Below, piece after piece: positions 18,073 to 44,900 of a stretch of 64,000 nucleotides of DNA. Where the stretch lies: the NCBI GenBank assembly GCA_045837725.1, contig JBEWZL010000080.1, positions 1 to 64,000 on the forward strand, written 5' to 3'. The notes beneath the pieces are model-generated. The model was not told the DNA's origin and did no database searches. It worked only from the letters and a program-made list of their open reading frames with translations. The stretch comes from Vermamoeba vermiformis. Its lineage: Eukaryota. The stretch's first letter is position 1. Each line of letters begins with the position of its first letter. A program made the translations under genes and the position numbers.

Positions 18073-19187
18073 TTAGGACTTGGCTTGGGCCTTCTTTTGA
18101 GCCATGAAGGCGATGACGCGATTGACGTCGCCATCGTACTCAGCCAACAAGCGAAGGTGCTGGTTGTTGGGCTTGTAGCCTAACTCTTTGAGCTCGGCGA
18201 TCTGAGATTCGTACTTTTTCAAGCGCTCTTCTCTGGTTTGCTTGCGAGCAAGGGCGAGTTGTTTTCTATCAACAGAGGCGAGGGAGGTCGCAAGAGGCTC
18301 TTCTTCCTCCACTGATTTTTCTTCTTGCTCAACAACGTTGATCTTGCAGATCAATCTGAAAATGTAAGTCAGTTTGTAGTTTCGTAGCGAATATTACTGA
18401 TATCAACTTACTTAGGACCAAATTTCTTGCCTTCGTTGTCGGTCATTCTCCAGAAGCTCTCGTAAGATCCAGGCTGGTTCGGAGCGCGCATCGGGACTGT
18501 AGCTTCGTACACTTCGTTCGGAGCCACTTCACGAGTGATTGGCACTGCGTCGACTTGGCTCATGGCACCATTGTCTTTTTGGACTCGAATGAGCTTGAAC
18601 TCAGTCGACCAGGGCAAAGCACCGACGTTGCGGATCTTCCAGGACTTGGTAAAAAGTACATCCGGAGCGAACTCTTCGCAGTCGGGAGCGTCACGTAGAG
18701 CAATGAGACGAACTCGATGAGCAGAACGGTTTGGCTTTTCGTCGTTTTCGTTGGCCTTTTGGGGCTTGGCAGCTTTGACAGGCTTCTCTTTCTTGGCTTG
18801 TTTTTGCTTGATGATCTCGCGAACAAAATCAGGCATTTGCTTGCGAGGCTTGGCATCTGGTTCGGCTTGGGACTTTTTCTCTTCGCTGACGATAGCAACA
18901 GAAGCAGGCACGGTGTTGTTGATCTGCTGAATCTCCTTTTGAAGTGCGACGACGGAGATCTTCAAACAGCCAGCGGAAGATTGAAGGGCGCAAATAAGCT
19001 CGGCATCGGAGCTAATAGTTATTTCATCGCCTTCATCGTCCAAATAGCGAACTTTTACTTCAAGAGCTTCAGAGATGTTGAACATGGTGTGGATCGTAGC
19101 AGCAAGAGCATCGAAAGTGTTGGATTGCAAAGCAAAACGACGGAATTGGCCGTTGAATTGAGCTTTAATCGAAGTAGTGGATTGCAT
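18073..19187 (-). CDS. NBR1/p62-like selective autophagy receptor (PB1 + FW/NBR1-Ig + UBA)
   Basis: IKAQFNGQFRRF...YLDDEGDEITISSD (PB1); FTKSWKIRNVGALPW...GSYESFWRM...KFGP (FW); LKELGY...LLAEYDGDVNRVI (UBA). One intron near 18356-18410. Confidence 0.85.
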
Positions 19188-19998
19188 TGTTGAATGAAGT
19201 GGAATTGATTGTTGATCGGATTTAGGTCTGACTTGAAACTTTAGTGTATAGGTAAGCCACGTGTTGTTTCCTTATCAGATGTTTTAGTGAATTACTCGAT
19301 ACAACACGTGTTTACATTTTATAGTTTCTCGTACGTACAAACACAGGAATGGAACTTTTCACTATTTTTACCACCGACCAATCAGAAAGCGTTTAAAATT
19401 AATTTCCCTGCGTAAAGCAAACAAATGTCCCTTACCTTTCGTAAACATTGGCTAACGTCAATACTGACATTTGTGTGCTACTGGTCCCACCTCTACCCAG
19501 GTTTTGTTTAACGAACTCTTTTTAGCGCAGGATCTGACTTCGGATCACGCTGCTTATTGAGTGTGATTACTTCGAACTTCTTATGGTACCAGGCGGTAAT
19601 AACTCATACACATGAAACTTCTTGTTACCTAGAGTATACCGAGCATAGTTGGAGTTTGCATGTAGCTCTCGACCCTAAACAACGCAAGTGGTGGCACGGA
19701 GCTACACCAATGACCGGATTTGACGATTGTGATGGCGAACCAGGTGCAATATAACCACTTGCAAATGTGCAGTTCCTGCTAGTACTTGGACTGCGTAAGT
19801 CATTTTCTGGTTTTGCGCTGTTGCGCCCATTTATCGGCAAAGTATGTACTCTTTATCTTCCGAATGCATTTCTTGTCGTGTCTATTAATATGAATTGAAT
19901 TAATCGATCAATCGAAATTTCTTTGCTCGCAGTAATGTTTTTTCAATTTCTGTCCCCTGTTTGTAATTAAAATTCATATTTTGCAAAGAGAAGCACTA

Positions 19999-22794
19999 AT
20001 GAGAGCTCTATTGTCTATAGTATTCGTTGGTGTTATCTTTTCCGCGATTGCTCAGTACATCGCGAACCAGCTGGACTTCGATAAATGAACGAGCAGCAAA
20101 CCAAGCCCCAACCATTTCGTATCCTCGTGTAGCATCATTTAGCAACGGAGATTATGTAGTAGTTTACACTGTTGCTGGAGTTGGAACCGAGCAGACGCAG
20201 ATCGCCGCCAAGATCTTCGACAAAAATGGATCTGTGAAGGTCAACGAGTTCATTTTGTCGCAATCAAGTGGTCCCCACTATGCTCCTAATATAATGATTA
20301 TTAAAGGAGACTTGTAAGTTGTCGCATCCGTGTCAATCACAGTTGACAAGCTTTCTTGCGGTTTAAACTTTAAAATATCGACTTATTCCCTTTTACTATA
20401 TAATATAGAGCCGTGGCTTTATGGAGGTCTGTCGAAGTCGTGGAATACTTCAACTTCAATCTATTTTTATCCAACGGAACATCCGTCCTCGCATACTCCA
20501 TCCCGAACTATGCGCTTTCCACGTCTACGAATCTCGTAAGTAATATCTATATATTATTAATATATAATATCGATTATTTTTAGAATGATCCGCTGGGTTT
20601 GTATTCGTTGAACAGCTCGGACACTTTCGGATTTACTTTGCCTCCAACGAATCACACCTTAGACTTAGCTACCGTTGCTATCGCCGTGGTCGGTCAAATA
20701 ACTACTGTGAATTATGCTGCTGCAAGTGTAAGTATTCATTCAAAGCCGATACTTTAATAATTTAAAAACCTGATCCTTTTAATAGTACGACATTCCAGTT
20801 GCCGTTTATGATGATCGAACAAACTGCAGTTACTTTTTGTTGAAACAATCAAGCGGAGCTTACAAAATCGTATCTTATAACGGTTACCAGCCACTAGCAA
20901 CGTCTCAACGTGGCTCAGTGAATCAAGTCCAAAAAGCTACTTATGCCGTGCCTGTGCTAGTTGAATCAACTGACGTCGTAGTGTTCTTTCAAACAATTCT
21001 CAGCTCGAACGACATTTTTGTTTGTAAGGCAGATCCGGATCCAATTTAACTTTACTAACGTCCCTTCATTATTAAGCTCGACTTAGTCAAGACCTCTACG
21101 GAATGAATTCAGATGTCATATTCAATCGAGCTTACGTTAGAACGAGTATGATGCCCAGTGCCGTTCACATTGGCTCAGACTACATTTTAGTCGCGCACAG
21201 CTCGAATCTGAACAGCGTAATTTGTACGTTAGAAACTTTTGCCAATATAGCTGGTATTAATTCAATTATAGATCAACTGGGAAAAGCCACGCAATATAAT
21301 GGCTATCTCCTCGTAGGCCCAGAACTGTCGCTGAGTACGTTTACAAATGACACGTGTCATTCTATATTTTTCACGTGTCAAAAATCTGACGTCTAGCAGA
21401 TGACGTACCTACTGAAGGAGTTCATATGGCACGTCTTGGATCGAGCTCTGAAGTCGCCGTTACTGCGCTCAACACCGACAGAACGCAAGTTCTGGTCCGT
21501 CGGTTGTCGCTCTGTGGCAACGGTGTTTTAGACCTCAACGAACAATGTGACGGTCAAGACACTTGCACTGATCAATGCACTTGTTTAAATGGCATGGAAT
21601 TCTCTGGCGGTAAATGCATTGACGGTAAGTTATATAATCTATTTACGAAAAATTTATATTATATTCGAATTTAAATTTTGATAGTGTGCGGAAATGGAAT
21701 TGTTACTGGCTCCGAAGAGTGCGATAGTGGAGCTGGATGCAACGCAACAACGTGCAAGTGTATGGCAGGCTATCAGCCGTACGTCAACAGACAAGAATGT
21801 CAACGCATTCCATCGGAGTTCATTCCGAGTGTCGGACCCTCGCTTGACTGCCTTAACATTATAGACACCAGTTCTATGGTGCTTTACTTTAGCTTTGTCA
21901 ATAACAATGGCTTCGATCTTACAATTCCTTTTGGAGATTTGAATAAGTTCATTCCAACGGATCTTGCGGTAAGTTTGACCCAGCCACTTTTGAAAGGTTT
22001 TTTGAAGTTTAATCTATTCATAATCTAATGATATATTACACAGGGTGATAGACCGACGTTCTTTGCAGCGGGCAATAGCTTGACATACCCAGTCTCACCT
22101 TACAACTTGACCGTGCCTCGTGCAACATCGTCAGTCGTGTGGTTATTGGGCTCGTACAATTTGACCGTGGATCTTTCAGGAAACAAAGCTGAAGCCTTGC
22201 AATGTCCTAAAGGTACTTATAGTAATCCTACTAATACAATTCTAACATTTGAATAGATGCTGGATTTGTGATCACAGTTGCGACATTTGACACGCTGAAC
22301 AAGACTGACGTTCAAATCATTCTGAACAACCTTGCAAATAGATATAACTTTAGCGCGAGTAGATTAGACGCTACTTTTCGCATTTCTATTGCCGGCAATG
22401 CAACTCAGCCGAATATTTATTCGATTTCTGTCACTATTTTTGCCGCCACAAGTACGACTTACAAATAGCAATAATATCGATATATCCGCTTATAATATAC
22501 TTAGATTCATCGGAAAAGAGCGTGCAAGATATCTTGAGTGCATTGTTTGCGGATCTGAAAGACGCAAAGCAAGATCTGAATAACGACCTGACCCAAGGCC
22601 TCGACAGCAAGAATCCGCTTATTAAAGACGTATCTACTAGTCCTACTGGCGTGGAAGTGCGTGGTCAAGAGCGAGATATTCCGCCCACAAGTTCTTTTGT
22701 GCCTGTCACTCAGTCTGAAGTATCTAGCGGACCAGCATGTCAGTGGCTTGACGCAACTTTGTTAGCAGCTATTTGTATTGTATTATTTGTTTAG
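19999..22794 (+). CDS. Secreted/GPI-type surface protein: propeller-like repeats, Cys-rich CGNG..E.CD repeats, 'PxLxC..YF' domain, SEA-like stalk (frameshift near the N-terminus)
   Basis: Signal MRALLSIVFVGVIFSAIAQ; YPRVASFSNGDYVVVY..IAAKIFDKNG..EFIL; CGNGVLDLNEQCDG; CGNGIVTGSEECDSG; VGPSLDC..YFSFVNNN; hydrophobic C-terminus. Confidence 0.75.
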
Positions 22795-22931
22795 CTAAAA
22801 GAGTTATTCACAGCTTTTTTTAAATGGAAAAATATTTAGTGAACCGGATCTACCTTATAAATTTCTTCGTTTAGGCGAATATTTCATTAATAAATTCACT
22901 TCAATACATTACTTCGCTGAAATGCCTTTGT

Positions 22932-25900
22932 TTATTTTCGTTTGTTCTTCAACATGGCCGAAGGGCAGCTGTGATTAAAGTTGCAGAACAAACACTTTGA
23001 AAAGCTCGGTTGTGCTTGAAACACTGATTGGCGCACGTTATTTGCAAGCGATTGTAACAATTTGTACGTCTCTTCAATGGTACTCATATCCGGACTCAAC
23101 TTCAGCTTCTTAATACTACCGATAATAATACATTAATACACCTACTATTAGCAATAGTTCTATACTTACGTGTAGAAATTATGGTTGACAAACTCTGTGG
23201 TGATTTTTCTCGGCAATAAATTGTACGTTTGATAATAAGCCAGTGCCAAAACGCTTTGCACAAATTTGACTTGCTCTTCAGGAATATAACCTTCAGTGTA
23301 CGTGTAAAAATGATGTACTTCGTTGTCTTCGAAAACTCTGTGGAAATTTCCGGTGATCGTGAAACTTTGATCGTTGTTCGAATCTTTCAAGTTCTTAAGC
23401 TGATCTAACGGTGCCTTTAAATCAATCTTAATAGAGAACGGCTGATTAATTCCTTTAAATCCTTCGTAATCTTTGTCAAAGTATTCTTCAAGAGCTGCCA
23501 TTGCCGAGCTGTATTTCTTCGGATCAACTTCGACGATGTTAGGAAAACCTAAAAAATGTTAGAATTGATCGTTATATACTTATAAATAACGTACCTAGTG
23601 TCTTAAGATCATCGTTAAATTTGTGCATTAACTCCAAAAAGTTGAACGTTCGTTTAGGCTCGCCAGATTCGTCACCGGCCTCAAAAGATCGTTCGTTTTC
23701 AAACAACGCAGTCAAGGTGTTTTTGAACGCTACAAGGGACGTTAGAATACTATCGAATTGAAAAATGATACGGACCTGTTTGATAGGCCATCAGGAAGGT
23801 TGGCTGAATAGGCATCTTCAAAACATATTGATAATAGTAATGTAGCGGACATCTGTCAAAGATGCGAATCTGATCAAAATCGAGACTTGTCGGTGGCGTG
23901 TCAATTTTGGGTGTCAAAGTGATCGGTCCAGTTTTCTTGAAAAAATCTTTGGCAGTCGTTGTTGGTTCAGCAGGCTCCGGCGCGACTTCAACAGCTTTCT
24001 TTTTCGAAGAAACTTTTGGTTGGCCAAGTGCCTCAGCGATAAACTTTGACGGGTTGTGTGAAGAAAATTTCACGGCGGCTTTGTTCTTGTTATCTCGGAC
24101 CGTGTAGTTCGTGAAGATGAACTTCTTTTTAGCTCGTGTTAAGAGCATATAAACAAGTCTCCTTTCTTCTTCTTGGTACTCTTTAGCCGTTTCAATGCTA
24201 ATGCCCGTCAACTCGGGTGGCGGGGTCAAATCTGATTGCTACAAAGGTGGTCAGTAACATAGATTTTACTGTATTTTTTTCGCTTACTTTCAGACGACCA
24301 GGAGTCGAATCGTTCGTAGCGCCGGAGAATATTACGTAGTCGTACTCGTTGTTTCTTAGGTTCCAAAGAGTAGTTAATGCTACCGGTGAAATTTCCTAAA
24401 AAGGAAAGTCAGATCAAAATTTTTCACAGCGATGACTTGCCTCTTCCTCTACGAGCTCAGACCACAAAGTTTCAATGCGTTTCAAGTATGGAATTACAAA
24501 AGCTGGCAAAGAGGTCTTAAGTTTTCGTTCGACGTTGCCCACGAGCTTCAGGAACTTTGCAATATTCTTGCCTTGTTGCTCTTCAAGTTGTGTAGTTGGT
24601 GCTCGTAACGATTTCAACAACTTGTTCTTCTTCAAGAACTCGTATATGATTTGCATAGTCGTCTTGTTGGTCATCGCTTTTTCATAGTACTCCAAATCTT
24701 CGATAATTCTACGAGCCTTGCTAATGTATCCAACCATGTCGGCGTCCTTGATCGAGGCAATAGGACGGTCTGTCTTTTATTAGAACATCAATCCCGTCAT
24801 CACTTTTAGGCCTACAAACTAACCTGAAAAGTCCTTGAGAGCTTGTCGGAGGGTCTTTCTGTTCTGCACGTGATCTTCGGTAACTTCAGCTAACGCACGT
24901 GATGGGAAACTTTCAACGGTGGTCAGGACGACATGTCAAATCAGTGTTACAAGCCTTACCTGTACATCTTGGAGCCTAGTAATTGATACAAAACATGCGC
25001 ATTTGAAGGCTCAACCAAAGCGATAAGAAAATTGAGCAAGAATTGAACCTGGTACAATTGACAAATTAGCACTATTTAGATTCGCAAGCAACTAATTGAA
25101 CGTACCTCGGGGAACATGTTGATCTTTTGATTGAAAGTCTTATTTACAAATGAAACTCCTGCCTCGCGAAATGCATTGCTGAGTTCGAGCATTTCATTCT
25201 TACTTCGAACAGCCTACCAAAATATAAGTAACTCACGATCATTAGATGTTAGTGCCCGGTTAGTCACCAGTACCTCGTTACGTACCAACACAATCTTGGG
25301 CTCTCGTTTCTCACCGTCTTCAGAGTCAACATTGGTCTCCTTTTGCATCATCGCTTCGATATCGGCAGCAGGATTGCTTTTGTCTCCAAACTCGTTCTTA
25401 AGTATCGTTTGTACCATTTGAACGACAGCCGTGACTTCTTGGTGACGCGTGTCATAGACAAAATGTTCCACACGAGCACTACCGTCGACATCAGGTACAT
25501 TAGCTGTCATTAGCTTATTCAAGCCGCGCTTGACTTCCATTCGATCACCGTTCTTCGTGATCAGATTGCGGGCAGCTGTTAAGATCGGAGCGGGACTGCG
25601 ATAGTTATTGGCTAACGTGAAAATAGCAGCGTTTGGAAAATGATCTGCAAGACGATCAAAAACATTGGGAATCGCTCCTCGCCATCTAAATATAGCCAAA
25701 TCGTCATCACCAAAGAGTGTCATTGTTCTATTTTTGGTGTCAGTGTTTCCCAATAACTTGATGAATTCGAGCGTGATTGGATTGATATCTTGGACCTCGT
25801 CTACAATAACGTGTGGGAATGTATTTCTAATTTCTTCTACGAAATCAGGTCTTTCTTCAAACATCTTCATTGCAGCCATCATCACGTCCAAATGATCAAA

Positions 25901-26918
25901 CTTTTTCTCGTCCCATTTGAGGCTGATAAACTTGGCATAAGCCGCAGCCAATTCAGTGTGTCTTTCGATGAGAACGCTCAACGGTGTCTTTTGCTTGTCG
26001 TTTGATTGCGTTAAATTCTGTGCTTCGTTCTGTTTGGCCGTCAAATTTGCGATGTATTGGTGGTACTTTTCAGGAGTTACATTGGCCTCCTGAAGTCTCG
26101 TAAAGTAGTTTAAGATAGCATTTGTATGATACAGCGGGTTCTTCTCGGGATTGAATAGGTTGAAACCGAGATCTTTGAAGTGCTCTTGGAAGAAAATTCC
26201 TCTGAAACAGGGGTCAGACAACAAGATCTGCGAATCTTTTACTAGGACGTACCGTTCCATAAAGCTAGCAGCTTTTACTTCACTAACAGGTGTTCTATAT
26301 CTATCTTTAAATTCTTGCAAAAAGCTGTACGACATCGTGATCCACGATCTGATAGTGGATGTGTTTTTTGATAGCGGCGTCTGAAGATCAATCTGGTACT
26401 GAATATTCGCGGCAGTTTTATCAGCAGTAGTGAGCACTAATATTTCCTCGGGCTCAGCAATATTACTTTCGATTAAATGTTGGACACGTCCTATTGCGCA
26501 GTGTGTTTTGCCCGTGCCAGGACCTGCGTGAGTTTATCAATAATTTCCTCGAAATGATGAACATCACGTAAGTAATAATTTACAATACCTGCTATTACAA
26601 AGGCTTGAGGGTTCATGTGCTCGATAACTTTCTTTTGATCGGCATCTGCTTTGAAGTTTGACAACTTAATTTGCTTTATTAGTACTATACTGATTATTAT
26701 ATAAATTATTCGACTTACAAATCTATTTTCTTGCTTTGATTGCGTGCTTGAGTTGATTATTACTTTCTAGAGAATCAAAAAAATCTCAATTAATCACCAA
26801 ATAATTTATTAGGCATTGTAATAATACTATAACTTACTGTAATATTGTTTCTGACAGGAAGCACGATTCCTCTATTTTTAACCTGCTTGGCAGTCAAGAT
26901 CACGTTGCGAACCCACAT
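22932..26918 (-). CDS. UvrD/PcrA-type SF1 helicase fused to a C-terminal PD-(D/E)XK-like (AdnA/B, AddA/B-like) domain, with a predicted mitochondrial presequence
   Basis: IAGPGTGKT, IVDEVQD, FGDDDLAIFRWRGA, LANNYRS, EEERRLVYMLLTRAKK; C-terminal FDRCPLHYYYQY ... KCLFCNFNHSCP. Confidence 0.9.
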
Positions 26919-27311
26919 CTCGTTTTCTTTAGTCCTGTCACTGGTTTAAATACGTAATATCTACGGCATAAAGATTGATTTTGGGATTGATTACGAGTTG
27001 TGTTGAACTGTAAACTCACTAATTGAAAACTTGCAGATCGCGCGCTTTTTCGTGATGGTTTGACTTGGCAATAGTCCACAAACAAGCAATATAACACTAA
27101 TTATGCTGTTCCATCGGTACGTGATTATTCAAATATTTTAGCGAAGATTGATTACCGTATTTTTAGATCCATTTCCTAATTTGGCGATGTTTAAATAATC
27201 TCCCAGCGAGATGCTGTACTGACCGTTTGGTTTTAGAAATTACTTTATTTTAAAGAGATAACGCATATAATATACCACATACGCAACGGTAGGCGAATCA
27301 TTCTAATCAAA

Positions 27312-30131
27312 ATGAAGATCGCGCACGTTGCTATACTCGTGCTTTCAATCGCGGTGGTATCATTTGCTGCCAAGTTAGCCGACTCAGGCTATCCTACTTA
27401 TGCCGCCAATGCACAAAGAAATTGGAAAAGTAGCCGACCGGTAGGCATCACTACGTCGCGATCACGCGCGTAAATTAAAAATTTTACAGTGCTGTAATAA
27501 CCCTTATGAATTTACAAAATATATTTCTATTTGATGCTTGATTGCAATTTATGCATTTGTGCTTTTGATTAATTTTGGCAACGGGATCGATCCGTTGCAA
27601 TTAAATCAGAGCTGTTCATCTAATCCTTTTTAGCTAAAATGTATTATTTTGGTGCTTATTACTTTAATGACGATTTATTTTTTAGCTCTCTTGCGATGTA
27701 GCGAAAGGAAAAACAACCGTGCTTCAAGTTGCTTGGCAATTTGATCAAACTGGCAATCCATCAGGATTTGCATTTTCTTCTAATAGAGAGTTCACTATCG
27801 ATGAGCAAGTAAGTTTCGGTTAAACTCCCAAAATTATGGATCTAACTCATACCAATCCAAAAAAGGGATTTATGTACATTACCGGTCCTTTCCCCGAATC
27901 GCCGTTAACTGCAAGACTTCATATCAATGGTACTTTTTATCCTACACCAACGTAAGACAAGATCCGTTAAAATTTAGAAAAAAAGTTAACCGCATCTGCC
28001 CCGTTAGGTACACACCGATTTTCCAGGACTCTGTTCCAACGCAAGTCCAAGGCAAAGAGATGTACATAGGTGGTAGCGGCGATTCAGCTCGCGTTAATAC
28101 CAACACAATGACCCAGACTGCGTATTTCGCAGATGCTGTTTTGGGCGAAGGTCATTCTTCATACGTTCCTTTTGGCAACAACTTGATGGTGAAGACCAAC
28201 CAGGGAGCTCCATATCAAGATAATGCCTTCACGTACTTCTCTATTGGTACTAATGCTGAGGCTTCCGGCCAAACCCAAATCGTTGTCGGACAACCGCAAC
28301 TCAACGTGATGGTGTTCAACAATAGTGGCGTGGACATTGCCATTGCCGTTGGAGATACAGGAAACGGTTGGATGGTCGGAAGTACCGCTTGGGCTCCGAT
28401 CCCGATGGATCGCGCAATTTACAACGCGTTTGTCTCCGGTAACGAATTGGTTCTGCTTTGTGATGCTGCTCAAGGCGATGTCGGTGCTATTTATAGACTT
28501 AACGCAGTAAGTTTGCTTTTTACGATACTTTTTTTTGGCACGTGCTTTGGATCAGGACTCCAATTGACCGTTATTTTTTGAAGGCTACCGGTCAACTTAT
28601 TACCACGCACAATTTTACTACGTATCAAGGAGCAACGTATTATCTTGCCAACACCGCGTTCGTTATGTATCAAAATGGAAAGTCTCTGGCTTCTGTTACC
28701 TTTGGTGAATCATCTGTAAGTTATTCAATGCCGCTTTAATTTCTTATGGTCTAATTTTTTAAAGAACTTCTTCGTGGATCTGATAAACGAAGTTGAATAC
28801 GGAAATGCCTTCCCAGGCTATTTTAGCAATGCTCATCCTATTATGTCATCCGGTACGTGTTCTTGGTGTTTTTGGTACGCTTAAACTATGGACTAACCAT
28901 AAATTTTTTTACAGATGATATTGTGCTTTTGCCTTTAGCTGGCTCTGGCTCCAAAATCGAGTTTATTGGCTACGACTGGGAAAGCCGCGATTTGAAAATT
29001 CGCGGAAGACTTCCGGTCACGTACAACTCCCAGAGCGCAGGTGCCCCGGCCATTTCTGAAAATTGCAACGTGCATATTGTCGTTGATAACTCCGTCTATA
29101 CATTGGCTCCAATGCCGCTTCAAAACATCGTGCCAATCTTGGAGTGCGTTGATGCTGCCGGCAACGGTTACTTCGCGTACAACAACCTGGAGCAAAAACC
29201 AGTTTGGATCCCGCAGCTCCACGATAGAAACAATATCACTATTGTGGTAAGTTTCTTTAAACTTTCGGGTAACCGATGATACTTACCTTTAGTAGAACAA
29301 TACACCGTTCGAAGACTTTGCAGTTGGTCGTAGCCCTTATTTCCCACTCTCGTCCAAGATCTATCTTGGTACAAATGGCACGTTCACTTGGACCTTAGAA
29401 GACTACACTTTGACTTTCACAATTGGCCCGAGCATTGCCTGCCCAACTAGTAAGTCACCGCCATTATTTTCGTTACAACTTTATTAATCGATGTTAAAAT
29501 AGACGTCACATTTACTATCATTTTGACGGCCAGTTCACCGTTCCCCGCTGGCTTCAAAGAAATCGTTCGATCGACATTTGTAAATGTCACTGGCATCAGC
29601 GACAATCGTGTCACTGTTGTCAATACTGGCAAGCGAGACGTGACTCAGACTAGCACCTTGGAGACTGAGCTCGAAATTGCACCTGGTACGTAATTACGCG
29701 GTAATTGCAGTCTGAGACTACAATATCTTACTAACAATGATTACTTTGCAGACAATACGAACACTGAGCCCTCGCCGCAAGAAGTTGTTTCTAACTTTGT
29801 GTCATCTGAAACAACACAAGCTCAATTCGTCTCTGCGATCAACAGCACTACCGATGCTCCCTCAATAACTAGTTTAGGTGCGAACCTTTGATTGATTATA
29901 CGTGCATAACGGAGGCAAGCCATACTACTGTTAATATATCTAGACTTAGCGGGCAAATCATTGTCTACTGAGGTACAAGGTGTTTTGCCACCGCCAGTAG
30001 CAGCGCCGATTATTGTGGAAGAGCCGGTCGCACAACCTAAAGCGGTACCGATTGCCCCTACATCAAGTGCAGGTTTAATTAGCGTATCTATATTCTTTAC
30101 TTTTGTATATTCATTTATTTCGTATTTGTAA
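27312..30131 (+). CDS. GPI-type surface protein family, paralog 1
   Basis: Signal peptide + LADSGYPTYAANAQRN; PLQNIVPILEC..GYFAYNNLE; TASSPFPAGF..TFVNVTGISD.RVT..KR..LETELEIAP; P/A-rich tail; hydrophobic end. Confidence 0.85.
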
Positions 30132-30285
30132 TCTCGATAAATTCCCTCGTGACAACTGCGTGCTCCTGTCACCAAAGTTGTAAATCTCCCGTTTTGCCAT
30201 CGGGACTTGCGACATCGATTTCGCTTTTCGCTTGCAAGCTGCAAAACACCGGTAATTGCAATACAATTCTGTTCTGAAGCGTCCG

Positions 30286-33049
30286 ATGCCGGATCGTAAA
30301 GAATTTTTTTGTTGGCTGCTTCTAGGCCAGATCTTGCTGGTCAATGTAGTATACAGTGCAAAGTTAGCTGATTCCGGTTATCCAATGGCTGGAGCTAATC
30401 CTCAACGAAATTATCAATTAACAGAAAGGTAAAAATGAACGCAACAACACGACTCGAAAGATAATCTTTCAAACCAAATAGCATTATAATTGGTAATATT
30501 TAAATTATAATATTAGTAGTAGGCGAACTAATTAACATGATTTATTTTGTTTTTTAGTTTTGCTTTTTCTAATCCGCGATGTTACGCAGGTTTTATGCCC
30601 AAACGTCTCCGGCGGTAAATCAACCATATTAAATGTAGCATGGGTGTGGCCGCCTAGCAATTTTCCGCTCCAATGGGACTCCGTAGCACACCGAGAAATT
30701 ACTATGGACGCTGACGTGCGTATTAAACCATTGGAAAATATTATAATTATTTTATAGGGATACATATATTTAGCTGGATACGTTTTCATTGAAGGAAATG
30801 GCCTGCAATCGAAAGTTTTCAAGATTCACTCATCTGGAAACGCTTCCCTGACCACTATGTAATCAGTTTCTATTATTTATCTAGGAAATTAATCGTATCA
30901 TGCAGGACAAACTCGGTTCCACTAGAGCAATCAGTATACACTCACTTGGAAGGCGGTCTTTATTATTCAGCCAACGATAACGCTACCTTCGCTTGGAACC
31001 CTGATTTATCGTTAAATACGAGGATAGATAACGTATTTAATTCTATTGGTCCCTCGTCCGTCGCTCCTCTCGGATCAGATTATCTCGTCAAATCGAATGA
31101 CGGCAGCGAAACAGATCCCGCGCTTACCTTTATCAAAGTGCCAGAGAATACTGTTGATGTATCTAATAACCCCAACTTTATTGTTGGCTATACTACTCCT
31201 GTTATGGTCTACAAGAACGCGACACACGAGTTTCCGATTGTTGCGTCGAACACTTCACCTGCCACTTTCACATCTATGTATTACAATGGTTCGCTGCCAC
31301 GAGAAAGTGCTAAAGCGATGATAGACGGCTCTGAAATCATTTCTATAACGCAAAATACTGATGTGAAGATCTACAGAATAAGTGCCGTAAGTGGGACGTC
31401 AGTCCATAAACTGTTTACTGAGATTTCCTTTTAGGAAACTGGTGTTATCTTGGAAGAGAAGGGTGTCACTGTTGTAACTGGAGAGAGTGTCAGCTTGTCA
31501 GATCCGTCAAAATTTCTATATCATAATGGACGATCGCTTGCTGATGTCAGCCTTGGTGATGAGGTAGAAAGAACGGAATTATTTAATTTGAACTTTGTTC
31601 ATTACTAACTGCGATTCATACTCGTAGCATGCCTTTGCAGACCTTTATAACGACGAACTGATTGTCGAACGAACTGGAGAAATGCTTACCCAACCAACTT
31701 ATTCTACAGGTGAAGCTTGATCGTACTATTATATGTTATTCCGAGATGCTTAATTAATCGTGATTGATTTTAGTGGACAACGTCGTGATCGCTACTCTTT
31801 ATCGCGGAAATTTAGAATTTTGGGGCCTGGGTTGGGGAACCTGGGACGTTAAAATGAAGGCTGTGGGACCAGAGTTCAATAGTGCTACTGTAAGTAATCG
31901 AGACCTAGATCCTCTGTTTTAAGAAATTGTCGCGCTGACACTTTTGGCAGGGCTTTCCTATCTTCTCTGAAGACTGCAAGATGCACGTTGTAGTCGATCA
32001 AAATCTCTACACTCTCGAGCCACTGCCTATTCAAAATGTCGTGCCTATTCTCGAGTGCATTGATCCTGAGTGGGGTGTCGGATACTTTTCGTATGACAAT
32101 CTTGGACAACGCGAGTTCCAGATTCCGGCCATCCAAGACCGAAACTTTGTCGCAGCAGTGGTAAGTCTACTCGGTCTCGTCATTACTATGTTATATTAAC
32201 TCGGCTATGTTAGAATGATACTCCTATTACATCGTTTAAACTCGGTCATGGACCCACATATCCTTTGTCCAACATCTTGTCTCTGCCGTTGGAGAACAGT
32301 ACTTACACTTGGCAGCTCGAAAATTACCTTCTTAGCTTCAATCCTTCGGACTCTAAATTGTATTGCCCTACGAGTAAGTGTTTGTAAAGTATTGTTTGGA
32401 TGCGGATCTAACGTAACTTACCCTTGTAGCGGTCAATTTGACCATTGTCTTGACAGCCGATGCGCCTTTCCCTGCTAGTTTTAATCAAAAGGTGCGAAGC
32501 ACGTTTGTTTCTGTGACGGGAATTAGTGACAGTCGTGTCACAATTGTCACGAGCTCCAAGCGAAGTACCACTCAATCGAGCGAATTAGAAACAGAACTTT
32601 CTATTGCTCCTGGTGTGTGCCTTCATATCATGACTTTATTATTGACACTAACGTGATTATTAGATCCTAATAATGTGGAAAATTCTCCTGCACAAGTCGT
32701 GACAGAGTTCGCCACCAACCAACGAGATGCGTTCAACCAACAGATTAGCGCTGCCGACGGAGCTCCAGCCAATGTCACCGTATCATGTAAGTATTTACAA
32801 CTTAATTATATAAGCTAATATAATACAGCCGTTACCACGAAGCCGTTAGCGAGCCAGATTCGCGGATCCACAGAGGAAACTCCTTCGGCCCCACCTTCAA
32901 TTCCGACCAATGAGCCACAAGAAAGTTCGCAAGAACCTCAAGCGGTACCTTCTACAGCTAATTTCCTTTCCGGTATTGTTGGAATTCCATTTTTACTGTT
33001 TTGCTATTTCGGCGGTTCGCTTGCCATAAATAACAAATTCAGATGTTAA
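30286..33049 (+). CDS. GPI-type surface protein family, paralog 2
   Basis: MPDRKEFFCWLLLG..AKLADSGYPMAGANPQRN; LPIQNVVPILEC; TADAPFPASF..KRSTT..LETELSIAP; intron positions shared with paralog 1. Confidence 0.85.
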
Positions 33050-33082: not shown

Positions 33083-35787
33083 ATGGACTCACGGCATCGG
33101 AGGAAGAAAAGTGAGCAATTGGCGGTCTGCTCGATCCTCATCTGTTCGATGCTCTTTCTTATACCAAATATTAATGCCGAGGTACTTGCAAACTCTGGGT
33201 ACCCAACTGCAGGTGCTAACGCTGAAAGAAATTTCATGATCAACCGCCCTGTAAGTGGTAGCCGTTATTTTTAATTAATTGCATAAAAAATAGTAATGCC
33301 TTTATCTTAAGTTCGCTTATTAAATAATAGTAATATTTACTTATATTTACATTTACGCAGTTTCTTTGCCCGACGGTGTCCGGAGGAAAAACCACGGTGC
33401 TGAATCCAGCATGGATTTGGCCTCCAGACGACGTTATCTTTAGCTTTACCAGCAAAGAGATAACTGTTGATGAATTCGTAAGTCGGCTTCAATTATTAAA
33501 TGACGCTTAATATTTCTATCTAGGGGCAAATTTACGTACAAGGATTCGATACCACCGAACGAGTTATTAAAATCGATATTAATACCGGCCAGCGCGCTGC
33601 AGCAGAGTAGGATATTAAATTTTTAGCAATAACTTTATTAACAATATTGCTTTAGCTACCAAACCACTACTTTCATCGATCCGGTTTTAACGCACGTACA
33701 AGGCAACAAATTTTACATGTCGAAGACGGGCTCTACAGCAGTCATTAATAGCGCTACTATGGTTGCTTTGTATGATTTCCAGGACGCAGTTTCTGGAACG
33801 GGTCCATCGTCTTTTGTGCCCTGGTCATCGAACTACATGATTGAAAGCAACATTAACCCTCCTGACCCCACCATCGTTTCCATCCAATATTATGACGCTG
33901 TAAACAACGTCTTCAACACGAATTTACAACAATTCTTTGTTGGCCAACCCGTGCTCGCAATGGTCTACAAAAATAATACCATCGTGCTCGTTGGCTGGCA
34001 TCCTAATGATGGTGTTAGTTATATTCAAACGTCGAATTGGACCGTGAATATGAACGAAAGTCCAAAACGAGCTTGGATTGAAGATGACGAGCTGGTCATA
34101 CAAGCCGTCGAAGTCGTGCTATTAAAGTACCATTTGGTAAGCCTTCGCCTTATTTTTTTTAACCCGTTAACTAATAGAATATGTATATTAGAGCAATGGA
34201 ACTCAAACATTCCGCAAATCTTACAACCAGTATCAAAACAACTATTACAGTGGAGCTCCGTGGCTCATGTACTACAAAGGTCAATCGTTCTCACAAGTGA
34301 CTATTGGTGAGCAGGTACGTAATGATAATATTAGTAATAGTTAGCTCGTGAAACATGTTAATAGTGTGGACTATTAGACTTTCTACGTGGACATTATCAA
34401 TGAGGTGAATTTTACCGGCCCAGTTCCCGCTGCATTGCAAGCTCAGCCGATCTTGTCTAAAAGTAATCGTAAAACATATTATTATGATAATCTAATCACC
34501 TTGTTGCAGTGGACAATACTTTGTTTATCGCTCAATCCAACATCGGGTTTGACGTCGAATTCATGGGTCTCGAATGGGGTTCATGGCAAGTTAAACTCGT
34601 TGGGCAATTGGCTCAGGGTGTTTCTATTGGTGACCTTGGTCAGATGGCAAGTACTTTATTAATTAGCGAATAGCGTTTTAGATGGACCAATTGGCTAACG
34701 CACTAAATAGGGAACTCCAATCTTTCACGATAATTGTCAAGCTGCTGTGGTGTTAGGCTCAAAGCTGTACGGACTCCAGCCACTACCCATTCAAAACGTC
34801 GTGCCAATCGTCGAGTGTTACAATCCTAATGATGGCCGTGCCTTCTTCTCTTACAACAACCTCGAGTCTAAATCTTTCATTCTGCCACGCGCCGACGATC
34901 GTAACAACATCTCGCCTTTGGTACGTCATTATTTTTACATAAAATGTCACCCTAATTTTCGTGCAGAATGTTGTCCCTGTGAAAACTTTTGCTACTGGCC
35001 GTGGTCCTGCATACCCGCTGTCGCTTCAAGTGTTCCTGGGCTTCGAGAACGCTACGTACACTTGGACTTTGGAAGACTACGTGTTGACTTTCACTGTTAG
35101 CCCGAGCCTCTATTGCCCTCAATGTAAGCTCATCTTACTACTCTCATGCGTACTTAACTTTTATGTAATTAGCTGCTAATATTGTTATCACTTTGACGGC
35201 CGATTCACCGTTCCCCGCTGGCTTCAAAGAAATCGTTCGATCGACGTTTGTAAATGTCACTGGCATCAGCGACAATCGTGTCACTGTTGTCAATACTGGC
35301 AAGCGAGATGTGACTCAGACCAGCACCTTGGAGACTGAGCTTCAAGTAGATCCGGGTAAGCTACTTTGAATGGTCAAAACGAGTAAATAGCTCAATAATC
35401 TTTTGTTCATAGATGCCACTAATACGGAGCCTGACCCGAGTTCAGTCGTTCAAAACTTCGTTTCGTCGCAACAACAAGATTTCAACACTAAAATTTCTGA
35501 AGCAGATGGCGCGCCGTCTAATGTTCAGACGGGTAAGTGTTTTCCCAAGTCATTTTTGCCCAACTCAACAAGTTAACTTGAGTTGGTTTACTTTAGATGT
35601 TACTGGTAAAGAACCTAGCACGGCTTTGCAAGGAACAATTCCTCCTAAAGCTGTTCCTGCGGCACCGCCAGACGCTACATCTGCACCTGTATCGACGAAT
35701 CAGCCCATCAAACCTACCTCTGAAGCCACACGTGCCACCTCTTATATATTTTCACTACTGTTGTTGGCTTTATGTTTAATCAGCTAA
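33083..35787 (+). CDS. GPI-type surface protein family, paralog 3
   Basis: EVLANSGYPTAGANAERN; LPIQNVVPIVEC; TADSPFPAGF; ends SYIFSLLLLALCLIS. Confidence 0.85.
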
Positions 35788-37640: not shown

Positions 37641-39607
37641 TGTCAATAACTTGTAGCGTGTGCTGTTGATTGAATTGTATGAGGTAGATGAAATGAAAAG
37701 ATTCGCCGCGATGGTTTTTATGCCTGCGGGCCACGTGTACGATGTGATTGTAAATTTAGTAAAAAGTACCCAAATTTCAATGTGAAACATTTTGAAGCCT
37801 TGATGACAGGTCGCCGAAAACATTGAAATAATATATAAGGAGATAAATCATATACTGTCCAATAAAAGGTCCTATTGTCGTCGTGCATCTTCTGCTTCTG
37901 AATAACTTGTGAAAATAGAATTCAATCTTTTTAAAAGAATTGCCTAATATGAGCAATTTCCTTGATCCAAGCTATCAAATAATGAGACGACGTTGATTGA
38001 GTTCGGGTCACTCCTAGTATACTTTCAAAAAAGTGCTGCAGAATGAGTTTATGGAGATCTGTCGAAATCACAACGTTGGATCGCGCAGGACAATCCCGTG
38101 AAGCGACATACATTGCACGATTACGCGCGGACCAACTAAATAGAAGAATATCAACGAAACCGTGCCGAAAACTCAGAAATCGCATTTATTGGACGGAATT
38201 GTCGGATTTGTTTCAAGAGTTTGCTTTTTTTTATCGATTAATGGCGGAATGTTGAAAGATATTGTAAACACAGTCCAGACAAAGAGGTAATCTGGAAGTA
38301 ATCTCCCTCGAAACTTTTTTGGATCTCTTCCAACTTTCTTACCCACCTTGTTTCGAACCTCTAATCTGAAATATCACCCATGCGTACGTATAATCAGTGT
38401 TTTATCGCAGCGGGACTACTCATTGCAGTGATCTCTATCGCGAACGGAGCCGAAGTGCTTGCTAACTCAGGTTATCCGTGCCTGGGTGGAAACGCGCAGA
38501 GAACATACAAAATCGATAGGAATGTAAGTAATATTGCAGCTTGCTATTCGATTAACCGCTTTTTTGTGCACGATAATAAATATTGCTTTAATATTCGTGC
38601 TAATTCTCCACGCTGTTTAATAATTGCTAAACGTGTGTTTAAAAATAGTAAATTGGATATTTATACTAATTTTATTAGTTTCATTGTCCGGCGCAGACCA
38701 ACGGAAGGTCAACAGTTTTGAATGTTGCCTGGATTTGGCCGCCAGATAACTTTGACTTCGATTTCGTCAGTACTGAAATTACTACGGATGCGGAGGTAAA
38801 AATAATTTCCTACGATTACCGTTTATATCAAAGTTTAATTTTAATTTTAAAGGATCACATCTACGTACAAGGAAAAAATGCGACGACTAATATAATTTAT
38901 CGAGTACACTTCGAGAATGGAACATTATCGACTACTGATAGCGGGTATAATAATGTTCTAAATATCACCGTGATATTAATTTTTTGGTACCAAAAGGTAT
39001 ATTCCGACGGGGGATCCGCCAGCTTCCCTCACTCACGTTGCTAATGGATTTATGTACATGGCCTCGGCAACATGGTCTGAATACGTAGAAGAAAGTTCAA
39101 TGAGCGCATTTGTTACAGCGTCGCATACCGTGGCTGCTACGAAACCCTCGTCGTACGTGCCCTTCGGCAAGTATATGCTCAGATCCAACGTGGGAGCGGT
39201 CGCAGTTAATGATTATTCCTTGACCTACTGGGACTCTAATGTGCATTTGTTCGACACCAATGCTCCGAACTACCAAGAGGGCCGACCTATTGAGGTCGTA
39301 ATAGGGTCCAACGCGACCTCGGAATTTTGCATTGTTGTCACGGACAGAAGTCCATTCCCAGAATACCCTATTCACTCAGATAGTACGCCCCCTCTAGTTG
39401 CTACCGGAGGTACCTCACCGCCAGTTCGCGCTTGGTTCGAAGACGGACTATTTTACGTTCTTGGTACACAATCTTTTTTGGTTGTAGACGTGCGTAACAA
39501 CTTCTAGCGAAGTTATCATCTCACATTTTTTCTTTTTTTAGTGGTCTAATAGCTCTAATAATATCGATTATTCTCTTAATGGCGGCATCGATGGCCTTTC
39601 TAAAGAT

Positions 39608-40217: not shown

Positions 40218-40389
40218 TGTGACACAACGCCTACATCGCGTGCTGTGGATTATCCCACCAGGATTTAGATTTGTGATTCGTCACGTGCTCGTGACATGTC
40301 TTGTACTTTTCTTTATAAATAAATACTCGTTCTATTCTACTCGAGAGTGCACGACTATTGCTCTTTATTTAAATCATAGTTACATCACA
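40218..40389 (+). repeat. 5' LTR
   Basis: Appears identical to 46024-46195; TG...CA ends; contains AATAAA. Confidence 0.97.
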
Positions 40390-40391
40390 TT

Positions 40392-40402
40392 TGGCGACAC
40401 CT
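40392..40402 (+). promoter_or_regulatory. Primer-binding site (TGGCGACACCT)
   Basis: TGG starts 2 nt after the 5' LTR; implies a tRNA with discriminator G and 5' end GACACCU (a Ser tRNA is a guess). Confidence 0.7.
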
Positions 40403-40421
40403 ATCGAAACGAACTTTTGCG

Positions 40422-41879
40422 ATGGCGGACAAACTTCTGAAGTCTGCCACAGAGGCCGCTAACCGACACAGTGGCACAACCACCTCTAGTGGTCGTCGTG
40501 TTTCTCGCTTTGCCCCGGAGACTAGAACCCTGGACGACGACGTACCAATGACCGATTCAAATAACGGTACCCCGAAAGAGACTGAATCGAAGGCTAATCT
40601 GGAGTTCTTGACAAACGTCTTTACGCCTGTCAAACCCGATTACCAACCCCTTCGTAACAATAACAATCTGGACGGGTTTAACGTCGGAAACAGAGTCCAA
40701 GAGACGAGTTCCTTCGTTTCTGAAGATCGCGAGTCTAAGGAGGAGAGATCCACCGAAGATCGCGCTCCCAAACGCAGAATCTTGCAAGAGGATGACGATC
40801 GCCAAGCGGTCGATCATGATCAAGAGAGATTCCGCTTTGACCCAGGACTCTTCGCCCAGCGTGCTAACCTCATGCAGCTCGAGATCATGAAGTCCATTAC
40901 TGAGCGTCTTGCGTCAATTTCTGAGCCAGCGGTAACCTTCACGGTACCAGCAGATCTTCCTGTTTTCCGCGGCGACGACGAAAAAGACGACATGATGTTT
41001 GAAGAGTGGATTGAAGAAATGATCAGTCACGCGCGCATCAGCAACCTAAAAGAAGACGCTGTTTGCCAAACTTTGCTCCGAAAGTTGGAACAGCCCGCTA
41101 AAGGCCGTATTCTCGACACCAAGCCAGCTGATCGCGACAACCTGGACAAGCTCGTTAAATTGCTCTACGAGTTCTTTGGTAGCACGAAAGAGAAAGTAGC
41201 AGCTAAAATCCGAGAAATCAACGACAATCCTCAAAAGGAAAACGAAACCGGAACTGCTTACTTAAACAGGACAGCGAAGGCGTATCGATACGTCAAAACT
41301 GCTCCTGAAGACAAGTTGATTTTGCTCCTCACGAACGTTCAAAAGTCCTACGCTAAAGCTATCCGCAAGTGCACTGGTTACGAAGAGGCCGTCAAAACGA
41401 TCATCCGCAAAGACGAAGAAGACAAGATCTTGACCCGTCAAACGAAGGCGACCATCAACACCGTTCATGGGCATCAATCCTACGACCAGGAGAACACCGC
41501 TTGCCGAGATCAGATCCAATATCTCAAGGATAAGTTATTCGAGATTGCAAAATCCTTAAATTCCAACGGATCTCCCAAATTTGGAAATTCTAAATTTAAC
41601 CAGAATTCAAATTCTAACTCTTCGGTTAAAACCTACCGATGCTCCGTGCATCAGGTGGACACGCATACAGATGCTCAATGCCGTGCCCAAAAGCGCAACA
41701 ACAAGGGAGGCAAGAAGTTCAACAACAACAACAACAGATCTAAGTGGGCCAAGACCAGCAAGGCCATCGAAGATCTCGGGACGCGCGTCGAGAAGGCTAT
41801 CAACGCAATCGAACAAGCCAGTGCCAAGGTCATACCTGGGCCGAATACTGACGCGAATTCGGCGCAAGCAAAAAAATAG
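40422..41879 (+). CDS. gag: Gag protein
   Basis: LPVFRGDD..FEEWIEEM, PQKENETGTAYLNR (MHR-like), CSVHQVDTHTDAQC knuckle. Confidence 0.92.
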   Translation: MADKLLKSATEAANRHSGTTTSSGRRVSRFAPETRTLDDDVPMTDSNNGTPKETESKANLEFLTNVFTPVKPDYQPLRNNNNLDGFNVGNRVQETSSFVSEDRESKEERSTEDRAPKRRILQEDDDRQAVDHDQERFRFDPGLFAQRANLMQLEIMKSITERLASISEPAVTFTVPADLPVFRGDDEKDDMMFEEWIEEMISHARISNLKEDAVCQTLLRKLEQPAKGRILDTKPADRDNLDKLVKLLYEFFGSTKEKVAAKIREINDNPQKENETGTAYLNRTAKAYRYVKTAPEDKLILLLTNVQKSYAKAIRKCTGYEEAVKTIIRKDEEDKILTRQTKATINTVHGHQSYDQENTACRDQIQYLKDKLFEIAKSLNSNGSPKFGNSKFNQNSNSNSSVKTYRCSVHQVDTHTDAQCRAQKRNNKGGKKFNNNNNRSKWAKTSKAIEDLGTRVEKAINAIEQASAKVIPGPNTDANSAQAKK

Positions 41880-41925
41880 ATGGTGGCAGCGATGCCGACT
41901 CCATCGCTGCTATCTCCGCAGAGTC
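41870..41925 (+). promoter_or_regulatory. Programmed -1 ribosomal frameshift signal (A AAA AAA + stem/pseudoknot)
   Basis: Slippery heptamer 41870-41876, 5-nt spacer, 13-bp stem 41882-41894/41902-41914, loop GACTC complementary to GAGTC at 41921-41925. Confidence 0.8.
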
Positions 41926-44900
41926 AACACCCCCACCTAGCACTACCACCCCGGCCTACTCACCCATACGGATATCTGATCGAGATGTCCTGGCCATGAT
42001 CGACACGGGAGCTGGATTTACCCTGGCCGATCATACGTTCGTTTCAACCCTCTCACCCCCGCCAACCTACTTTCATTGCCCTCTCGCTCTTGAAGCCGCC
42101 AACAAGTCTTCTATTGTTGTGCGTGGCTTCACTCATCTACCGCTCCTCATCGCTGGATTTCGAGTCACCGTACCTTTCATCGTAACAGAAGGTCTCTCTA
42201 CTGACGTGATCATAGGTAACGATACTCTTAAATTAATAGGCGCGACTTTAAGTTACACCAAGCGCATTATCAAAACTAAATTTGGAAATACGTCACTAAT
42301 ATGTCAAAAACCAATGTCAAAAATCTTTTTCATTACCCGGCGAATTTTATGTCCGGAAGATATTGAATTTCCACCGCGATCTGGAACACACTTCGCGGTG
42401 CCAGTTAATTCTGTTAAAAATTCTAGCGAAGACCCACCTCTGCAAGATGAGGCCATCGTTTCATTCGAGCCGTCACCAAAGGTCTTGTCCGACACCAGCT
42501 TACGCGTAGCAGGAACGCTCGACACGATTCTTGACGGCACCATAATGATCAACATGGCAAATCCAACGGAGTTTCCGATCACGCTAAAGAAGGGTACCCC
42601 GCTAGGACGCCTATCTCCGGCATTCGAACCGGAGCCGGTAAATTTTATAACACAACCTACTAGTGACAAATTACCACCCGCTTCTTCCATGTCAGACGAG
42701 GAATTTTTAGATCAATTTCCTTTTGATCCAAATCTGACATCGGAACAATTAAAAATTACAAAGGAGACATTATTAGAGTTTAGAGATAGATTTTTAAGCG
42801 AAATTAGAACTACTGATATTCTACAGACTGAAGTTCAACATCGGATCTTCACCGCTCCTGGTGAGATCGTGCAACGACAACCCTATACATACGGTCCTGA
42901 AGAACGTAAGATCATCGACGAAGAAGTGGACCGTATGCTCGCTAGCAACATCATTCGACCTTCAACATCACCTTGGGCCTCACCTGTTGTCCTTGTTCGT
43001 AAAAAGGACGGATCAATCCGCTTCTGCATCGACTACCGCGGGTTGAATCGTATCACTCGACGTGATATGTACCCCTTGCCGCGCCTGGATCACACCATCG
43101 ACTCGCTCTCAGGAATGCTTTGGTTTTCAACGATGGATTGCGTGTCCGGTTACTGGCAGATCTTAATGGACTCGCTCGACATCCCCAAGACTGCTTTCGT
43201 CACTCACCGTGGTCTACATGAGTTCACTGTCATGCCTTTTGGTCTCGTCAACGCTCCAATGACTTTCCAACGCTCCATGGACATCATTCTCTCGGGTCTC
43301 AAGTACGAGATGTGCCTCGTCTATCTCGACGACATCATCGTGTTTGGAAGAACATTTGAAGAACACATCAGCAATCTACGTACTGTCCTCACTCGTCTGC
43401 GTCAACACAACATCTACCTCAAGCCCAAGAAGTGCAGGTTCTCGCAACGCTCCATCACGTTCCTTGGCCATCGGATCTCTGCCGAAGGAGTCACTACAAC
43501 GCCCGACAAGGTCAAGGCCATTCTGGAGTTCCCTGTGCCGAAGAATGCCACCGATGTTCGCTCCTTCTGCGGTCTTGTCAACTTCTACAGATCGCACATC
43601 AAAGACATCGCGACGTTGCAAGCACCCTTGAATAAAATCATGGGGAAAAGCGCCACGTGGAGCTGGTCCGACGATTGCCAAAAAGCTTTCGAAGGATTAA
43701 AAACGGCTCTGGCGAGCGCCCCCGTGCTTGGGTTGCCTGACTACTCGCTCCCCTTCACCCTCACCACCGACGCTTCCAACGATGGTATTGGTGCTATCCT
43801 CTCTCAACAACTCGACGGTATTAACAAGCCGCCTCGTGTCATAGCCTACTTTTCCCGTAAGTTAAACCCCGCCGAGAAAAACTACGGCATTACGGAGAAA
43901 GAGGCTTTGGCAGTCGTTCAATCCGTGCTCCACTTTCGTCCCTACCTCTACGGTCGCCGCTTCACAGTCATCACAGATCATCAAGCCCTCGTGTTCCTTC
44001 ATGCCAACCGCGCTCCAACAGGACGACTTGCCCGATGGCAGGCCGCCTTGATGGAGTTCGATTATGACATTGTCTATCGCCCTGGTTCAGCCAACGCCAA
44101 CGCTGACGCTCTCTCGCGTTACCCGTGCCCTGCTCCAGTCGTTGAGGCCCTCTACACGATCAACTCGCCCGACACATTCAACACGCCGCCTCAGCCTTGG
44201 AGTGAAGAAGAAATCATCGTCGCTCAAGAAGAAGATGAAGACATCAGCCCTTTGCTTCACTATATTCGAGATGGAATCGTGCCCACAGAAGATCTCAAGA
44301 GATTTCAAGCCATCAATCATCGCAAGGAATTTGCCATCGTCAACAACGTCCTATATCGTCTCTCGCCGCATCCTCTACTCAAGACTACAACTAGACAGCT
44401 CGTGCTCCCCGCCAAGTTCCGTTCCCGAGTGCTACACCTTCATCATGACACGCCCCTAGGTGCCCACTTTGGTTTCAACAAGCTCTACTATCGTCTCAAG
44501 CAAGAGTTCTACTGGCCGTCAATGGCTACCGATGCCCTCAACTACGTCAAGACCTGTACTGCCTGCAACGCTTACAAGACGCCCGTCGACAAGCCCATCG
44601 GAGATCTACAGAACCTCGTAGCTACTGAGCCCTTCGACATCATCGGAATTGACCTCGTCGGTCCCCTGCCTGCGACTAAGAAGCACAAGTTCAAGTACAT
44701 TCTCGTGATTCAAGACCTGTTCTCCAAATGGGTCGAGGCCTTCCCAATCAAGAGTAAAGACGCCCAACACATCGCCCAGATCATCATCAACGAAGTAGTC
44801 TGCCGCTTTGGCTCCCCGCGACAAATTCTCTCGGACTGTGGCAAGGAGTTCGACAACCGCATCATGGCTGAAGTGTGTAAAGTAATTGGCAGCGTTAAGA

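Follow-up and report, generated by a model that had tools for sequence, protein, structure and literature searches.

RecC is a scaffold in which both the helicase and the nuclease are dead, and Exo5/MGME1 is an Fe-S staple 5' nuclease found in mitochondria that has no helicase body. AdnAB consists of two paralogous subunits, each a UvrD helicase joined to a PD-(D/E)XK nuclease; the AdnB motor is described as tracking along the 3' strand, which it delivers to the nuclease of AdnB itself, and the 5' strand as passing through the Fe-S nuclease of AdnA, the subunit that is not a motor (PMC13000450, PMC5314763). The lead motor carries a Trp pawl in motif III, and in AdnB this residue, Trp325, is reported to be essential (PMC8789073). 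AddAB of Bacillus has its single motor in AddA, together with an inactive helicase-like subunit that bears an Fe-S staple nuclease (PMC3064778). Fusions of a UvrD helicase (PF00580) to a Cas4-like nuclease (PF12705) are described as either stand-alone or linked to defence loci (PMC5704561).

Here, we compare these systems with a gene at positions 22932..26918 of a 64,000-nucleotide stretch of Vermamoeba vermiformis DNA (the window, G000:C80:1-64000, from a genome of 43.3 Mb in 309 contigs) and with its paralogue elsewhere in the genome, named C80 and C44, respectively, after their contigs. The pair resembles AdnAB in having two paralogous UvrD plus PD-(D/E)XK subunits, one a putative lead motor that keeps the motif III pawl and one a non-motor subunit with an Fe-S nuclease of the kind that handles the 5' strand in AdnAB (PMC13000450, PMC5314763, PMC8789073), and it resembles AddAB in having a motor-type subunit alongside an inactive helicase-like subunit carrying the Fe-S nuclease (PMC3064778). 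In contrast to AdnAB, the genes are eukaryotic, spliced and unlinked and their nearest kin are single bacterial genes; both AdnAB nucleases are active whereas that of C80 is dead, and C44 lacks every helicase motif. The Fe-S cluster of AdnAB is described on AdnA, whereas C80 and C44 both keep four Cys residues. AddA likewise has an active nuclease, unlike C80, and we saw no sign of a Chi site. The standalone bacterial fusions share the domain order of C80 and its staple of 1+3 Cys, but they hold all motifs in one chain, whereas C80 and C44 divide the activities between two genes, each with an N-terminal extension; the likeness to the published fusions (PMC5704561) is one of domain order and staple.

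The C80 gene

Three-frame reading combined with read joints places C80 on the minus strand from 26918 to 22932, in 14 exons encoding 1,090 amino acids: exons 1-5 at 26918-26838, 26766-26719, 26664-26589, 26523-26253, and 26201-25286; exons 6-10 at 25213-25106, 25048-24960, 24909-24824, 24769-24441, and 24395-24288; and exons 11-14 at 24238-23776, 23729-23595, 23548-23170, and 23115-22932. The introns are short and GT-AG, plus one GC-AG. Spliced joints were found for 11 of the 13 introns (four public runs; transcript-like contigs of close relatives), which bears out the initial annotation of an intron-containing gene. These include an in-frame 51-nt GT-AG intron (26202..26252, minus strand; joints in runs X2 and X15) and the 45-nt GC-AG intron immediately ahead of motif V (24396..24440, minus strand; joint in run X1). 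For intron 2 the support is a loose end of 13 nt; intron 1 has no joint in the four public runs. Since the introns are seen as spliced joints, the reads indicate transcripts; this indication of expression comes from relatives 88-99% alike, with X1 and X2 guessed to be RNA, and none of the indexed runs that contain the gene is registered as RNA.

A second copy of the gene lies on contig C156 (L012), which repeats window positions 21428-31472, a flank of 10 kb, at 96% identity. This contig is either the other, uncollapsed haplotype or a recent duplication, probably the former. The two copies of C80 differ by 26 synonymous and 2 non-synonymous codons, and of 40 read differences examined, with a further 88 outside this set, 34 are synonymous. 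Judged from these substitutions, C80 is under strong purifying selection. C80 is a real gene. Bacterial contamination is ruled out by spliceosomal introns spliced in reads and by eukaryotic neighbour genes, and a pseudogene by the open frame and the 26:2 synonymous bias. A viral source was also rejected, with 0 of 40 candidate viral-contig stretches in a scan that used clade-specific patterns.

Elsewhere in the window, a gene for a protein with PB1 and NBR1 Ig-like domains lies at 18408-19271 (minus strand), and an LTR retrotransposon at 40380-46006 (plus strand) has two open frames, a gag-like one of 499 aa and a pol frame of 1,384 aa with protease, RT, RNase H and integrase. Plus-strand ORFs at 27805-28581, 30793-31434, 33642-34310, 38980-39507, and 62990-63616 resemble, by eye, divergent copies of one secreted-type family.

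An eroded motor fused to a dead nuclease

The UvrD/SF1A helicase body spans residues 49-745 (24116..26649, minus strand; motif alignment and Pfam), and PF00580 matches the large exon with an E value of 3e-32. Alignment to 43 relatives was used to call the motifs. The helicase residues Q53, K74, D293-E294, the pawl W332-R333, R360, T677, E685 and R739 are kept. Motifs I-IV and VI had been read as intact, and this stands for motifs I (GPGTGKT), II (DEVQD), IV (NYRS) and VI (EEERR..TRAK), but not for motif III (GDDDLAI), in which Leu327 replaces the Gln that binds the gamma-phosphate (Gln254 of PcrA). Motif V is altered as had been noticed (H to W679 and G to N683), and motif Ia reads TTADK rather than TFTNK. 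The motif III Gln of PcrA is described as contacting the gamma-phosphate and coupling ATPase activity to unwinding (PMC7385302), and His665 of AdnB, the counterpart of W679, as implicated in coupling (PMC8789073). The same report gives the AdnB pawl as YGWRG, which W332-R333 matches (PMC8789073). Of the AdnAB lead-motor features, C80 thus keeps K74, D293-E294 and W332 and has lost the Gln and the motif V His. By alignment, the motor motifs of C80 are eroded at two positions (Gln254 to Leu, His665 to Trp) that are both coupling-related in PcrA or AdnB.

A Cas4/AddB-like domain follows at residues 821-1083 (22956..23890, minus strand, by alignment). Its Fe-S staple has the 1+3 arrangement of Cys residues previously recognized: C834 (23849..23851, minus strand) comes first, and the CxxCxxxxxC motif supplies C1071, C1074 and C1080 (22965..22994, minus strand). 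The nuclease residues are replaced (E by N938, D by H973, DYK by T986-Y-T988) and QxxxY is absent. The initial annotation had taken GNFHR and HHFYT as the remnants of the active site; these residues are present, but DYK aligns to T986-Y987-T988, directly after the quoted HHFY. Its call of a pseudo-nuclease domain holds, all catalytic positions being lost in the C80 alignment. As aligned, C80 is a fusion of UvrD to a Cas4-like PD-(D/E)XK domain that has lost all nuclease catalytic residues and kept the four staple Cys residues.

A paralogue with reciprocal losses

The initial annotation had proposed a search for a partner paralogue, and such a gene was found. Searching the genome with PF12705 resulted in two matches, C44 and C213. 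The latter was rejected as a family member because it belongs to an unrelated WWE-containing gene (L011, G000:C213:80803-84132); this gene encodes a Cas4/Dna2-like nuclease segment whose catalytic residues and Cys are apparently kept. The C44 match is the last exon of a gene model on the minus strand (G000:C44:409296-404954; L013:9296-4954) with 12 predicted exons and 1,227 amino acids. The N-terminal body of the C44 protein (~730 aa) is a UvrD homologue (47 bits, versus a best score of 5.1 in 500 shuffles; hhalign probability 95; top Atlas matches to PF00580) in which no Walker A, Walker B or motif III, V or VI was found. A K/E-rich insert (residues 851-1062, 63% K/E) lies ahead of the nuclease, which keeps E1098, D1116, E1129-x-K1131 and Q1144-xxx-Y1148 (probability 99.6) and the Fe-S residues C816, C1211, C1214 and C1220. 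The nuclease exon had no meaningful match among PDB sequences. The catalytic losses of the two proteins are exactly reciprocal, with the nuclease dead in C80 and the helicase motifs gone from C44. No third, all-active copy is present among the seven PF00580 and two PF12705 matches in the genome.

The C80 and C44 genes are on different contigs, and their co-occurrence was seen in one genome. Searches for a C44-type partner elsewhere, both of them weak, returned none among 2629 candidates with the large exon of C44 as query and, with a proxy nuclease query, nine matches out of 693, none of them partner-like. Head-to-head with C44 is a beta-ketoacyl synthase-like gene (L014:1-1800, plus strand; G000:C44 ~410000), with motifs like those of FabF/mitochondrial OXSM.

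Family and ancestry

Sequence searches resulted in 13 proteins with a dead nuclease, including C80, that form one clade. Within it, (D/E)xK plus QxxxY is found in none of the 13, the motif II nuclease Asp in three and the four Cys residues in all. Two relatives carry a eukaryotic label: P0129 (Rhizamoeba saxonica, EukProt) and P0126, a fragment filed under a locust assembly (Schistocerca gregaria LOC126315305) that probably derives from a co-sequenced protist. The others are unlabelled metagenome proteins, termed eukaryote-type on the basis of tree grouping and N-terminal extensions; a metagenome scan gave one locus, L016, which is P0006. Seven orthologues (P0001, P0003, P0004, P0006, P0008, P0009 and P0122) are intronless, read DQIED or DQLED at Walker B and have a dead nuclease. 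This P0001 group is doubly dead, a RecC-like state, with Walker A and the staple Cys kept. P0127 and P0131 are eukaryote-type single proteins that keep both active sites and are candidates for the state before duplication; P0130 is intermediate.

In a full-length tree of 57 rows (quick LG+G4, midpoint root; without P0003, P0008, P0126 and without AdnA/B, AddA/B, Hmi1 or yeast Srs2 rows), the 13 rows of eukaryote type group together in a single clade (SH-aLRT 100) in which P0127 and P0131 branch first. The sister of this clade is Chloroflexota P0125/L019 (SH-aLRT 100), and the surrounding rows are UvrD plus PF12705 fusions of Patescibacteria, Methylomirabilota and others, in agreement with the bacterial derivation proposed initially. 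The predicted separation from Srs2-like helicases was likewise recovered for the one in the same genome, C162, which groups with PcrA/UvrD (98), apart from the C80 clade; C162 is of the UvrD family like C80 but has a canonical motif V and a long acidic N-terminus. The name Srs2-like for C162, and Dna2-like for another gene of this genome, are our assignments from motifs. In a nuclease-only tree, which leaves out P0003, P0008 and L026, C44 joins P0130 (97/80) and P0127 (90/85), the C44 plus P0130 join being flagged as long-branch; the eukaryote-type rows are not one clade in this tree (three changes), yet a single clade is unrejected (p-AU 0.457).

An AdnAB/AddAB operon as the source was not supported, the nearest relatives in the tree being standalone UvrD-Cas4-like fusions. 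The 80 bacterial loci examined include 12 full-length single-ORF relatives, none with a second paralogue in tandem or in the flank (flanks exceed 3 kb on both sides in six of the 12). With a profile built from the relatives, PcrA (520 bits) comes out above AdnB (360), AddA (267) and AdnA (176), and P0125, P0127, P0131 and the C44 nuclease exon fall far below the AddAB cut-offs (TIGR02785/TIGR02773). An AlphaFold2 model of the orthologue P0009 (pLDDT 87.5) matches AddA, UvrD/PcrA and AdnA/B; AddA is the top Foldseek match (E 1e-31), and AdnB chains align with TMq 0.54-0.55 and rmsd 5.3-7.8. On this phylogenetic evidence, the C80 family is descended from standalone bacterial UvrD-Cas4-like fusions.

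N-terminal extensions

Exons 1 and 2 encode a presequence-like extension (residues 1-43; 26719..26918, minus strand), and Met1 is the sole Met ahead of the Q motif. The extension is basic and free of acidic residues, as had been described: the first is E40, and residues 1-39 contain seven K/R. By way of a chance estimate, D/E is missing from 6 of the 1006 segments of 39 residues along the body of the protein. R42-F-L|S may represent an R-3-like cleavage context. The first 38 residues of the C44 protein are also acid-free and basic (hydrophobic moment 0.58). Among relatives, the first D/E is at residue 43 in P0129, 50 in P0127, 30 in P0122 and 22 in P0001, whereas five bacterial relatives have one by residue 3-5. 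P0008 has a short acidic start, perhaps with a mis-called start codon. Composition and conservation fit a cleavable amphipathic presequence in C80; its moment (0.37) is modest and within the bacterial range of 0.23-0.46. Taken together, the extensions make a mitochondrial location of C80 quite probable. The same genome encodes a bacterial RecA whose upstream exon is basic and resembles a presequence (L017:1079-2439, G000:C127; TIGR02012 above cut-off). It also encodes a bacterial-type SSB, which is common to eukaryotes and hence non-discriminating.

Proposed mechanism and alternatives

Starting from the observed architectures, reciprocal catalytic loss, splicing, purifying selection and ancestry, the reading we favour, at a probability of roughly 0.4, is that C80 and C44 are a nucleus-encoded mitochondrial heterodimer, similar to AdnAB/AddAB but separately evolved through a duplication, in which cutting is confined to the 5' strand and 3' tails remain for RecA. 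C80 would be the motor-type subunit and C44 its partner with a dead motor and a live Fe-S nuclease. Both proteins would be imported into the mitochondrion, bind each other and engage a DNA end. C80 would then track the 3' strand by its Trp pawl, driven by ATP and probably slowly, while the C44 nuclease would cut the 5' strand, as suggested by analogy with AdnAB. Because the 3'-strand nuclease, that of C80, is dead, the reaction would yield a single-stranded 3' tail on which the RecA encoded in this genome could act, and a Chi switch would be unnecessary. Favouring this scheme are the reciprocal losses, the acid-free basic starts (~39 residues) in both paralogues, together with the extensions of P0129, P0127, P0122 and P0001, the bacterial RecA with its basic upstream exon, the match of W332-R333 to the AdnB pawl, the lack of a third, all-active copy among the PF00580 and PF12705 matches, the division of labour described for AdnAB, and the retention of the Walker B DE by C80 alone among 10 clade members. 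Counting against it are the partner found, with weak searches, in one genome only, the unlinked genes, the four Cys kept by both proteins where AdnAB has its cluster on AdnA, the modest moment, the unseen intron 1 and, from the alignments, the eroded coupling residues of C80 and the Walker B Glu missing in nine of the 10.

Since C80 has eroded coupling residues and most of its orthologues are without the Walker B Glu, a complex that is slow, or has no motor activity at all, is almost equally likely. In the motorless form, a strong competitor of the favoured reading though rated below it, C80 would bind ATP and DNA without translocating, as a RecC/AdnA-like scaffold, and the pair would be an end-binding 5' trimming nuclease that takes the role of Exo5/MGME1 when mtDNA is replicated or its ends are processed, perhaps with another helicase driving. 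Across the clade, Walker A is kept in 10 of 10 members and all 13 retain the motif VI Arg, yet the Walker B Glu remains in one of 10 with the region (C80; the others read DQIED, DQLED, DDLQD or DDIQN) and the motif III Gln in two of 11. AdnAB is moreover described as melting five base pairs and clipping the 5' strand without ATP (PMC13000450), and a search of this genome for Exo5 (PF09810) gave 0 candidates. Against a motorless C80 stands its retention of K74, D293-E294, W332-R333, R360 and R739 under strong purifying selection.

It is improbable that the paralogues act apart, C80 serving as a stand-alone organellar SF1A helicase of the Hmi1/PcrA kind, either an anti-recombinase or an accessory of replication, with its dead nuclease limited to DNA binding, and C44 serving as an independent nuclease. 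The genes are unlinked, the weak searches found no partner elsewhere and the bacterial ancestors are single genes, but the losses are exactly reciprocal and the ~730-aa motif-less body of C44 is most readily understood as a surface for interaction or for a DNA channel, of the sort found in AddB/RecC. Less probable still is a nuclear or cytosolic C80, with or without C44, whose basic N-terminus is no import signal: the modest moment and the acidic start of P0008 would fit, but C80, C44 and four relatives share acid-free extensions that bacterial kin lack, and the genome also carries a Dna2-like gene and, apart from C80, an Srs2-like helicase whose N-terminus is long and acidic.

Significance

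We found no report of a eukaryotic or mitochondrial AdnAB/AddAB-like pair in the open-licence literature. C80 and C44 may work like AdnAB/AddAB, yet by comparison they would fall outside both groups, with one nuclease dead, relatives under the equivalog cut-offs and a single-gene ancestry. According to a review of plant mitochondria, the proteins responsible for resecting broken ends in organelles are still to be identified (PMC6981420), and the heterodimer proposed here is a testable candidate for a resection machine that feeds RecA in a protist mitochondrion. Tentatively, a single bacterial UvrD-Cas4-like gene may have been acquired by a eukaryotic lineage and sent to the mitochondrion, with AddAB/AdnAB re-invented by duplication with reciprocal loss, giving a motor-only and a nuclease-only subunit for 5'-only resection that serves mitochondrial RecA; P0127 and P0131 (all-active) and the P0001 group (motor-eroded) would preserve steps of this path. 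If true, the way AddAB/AdnAB divide their tasks would have arisen here independently, with one nuclease permanently off. The C80 family offers a gradation of enzymes, with all-active forms at one end and motor-dead forms at the other.
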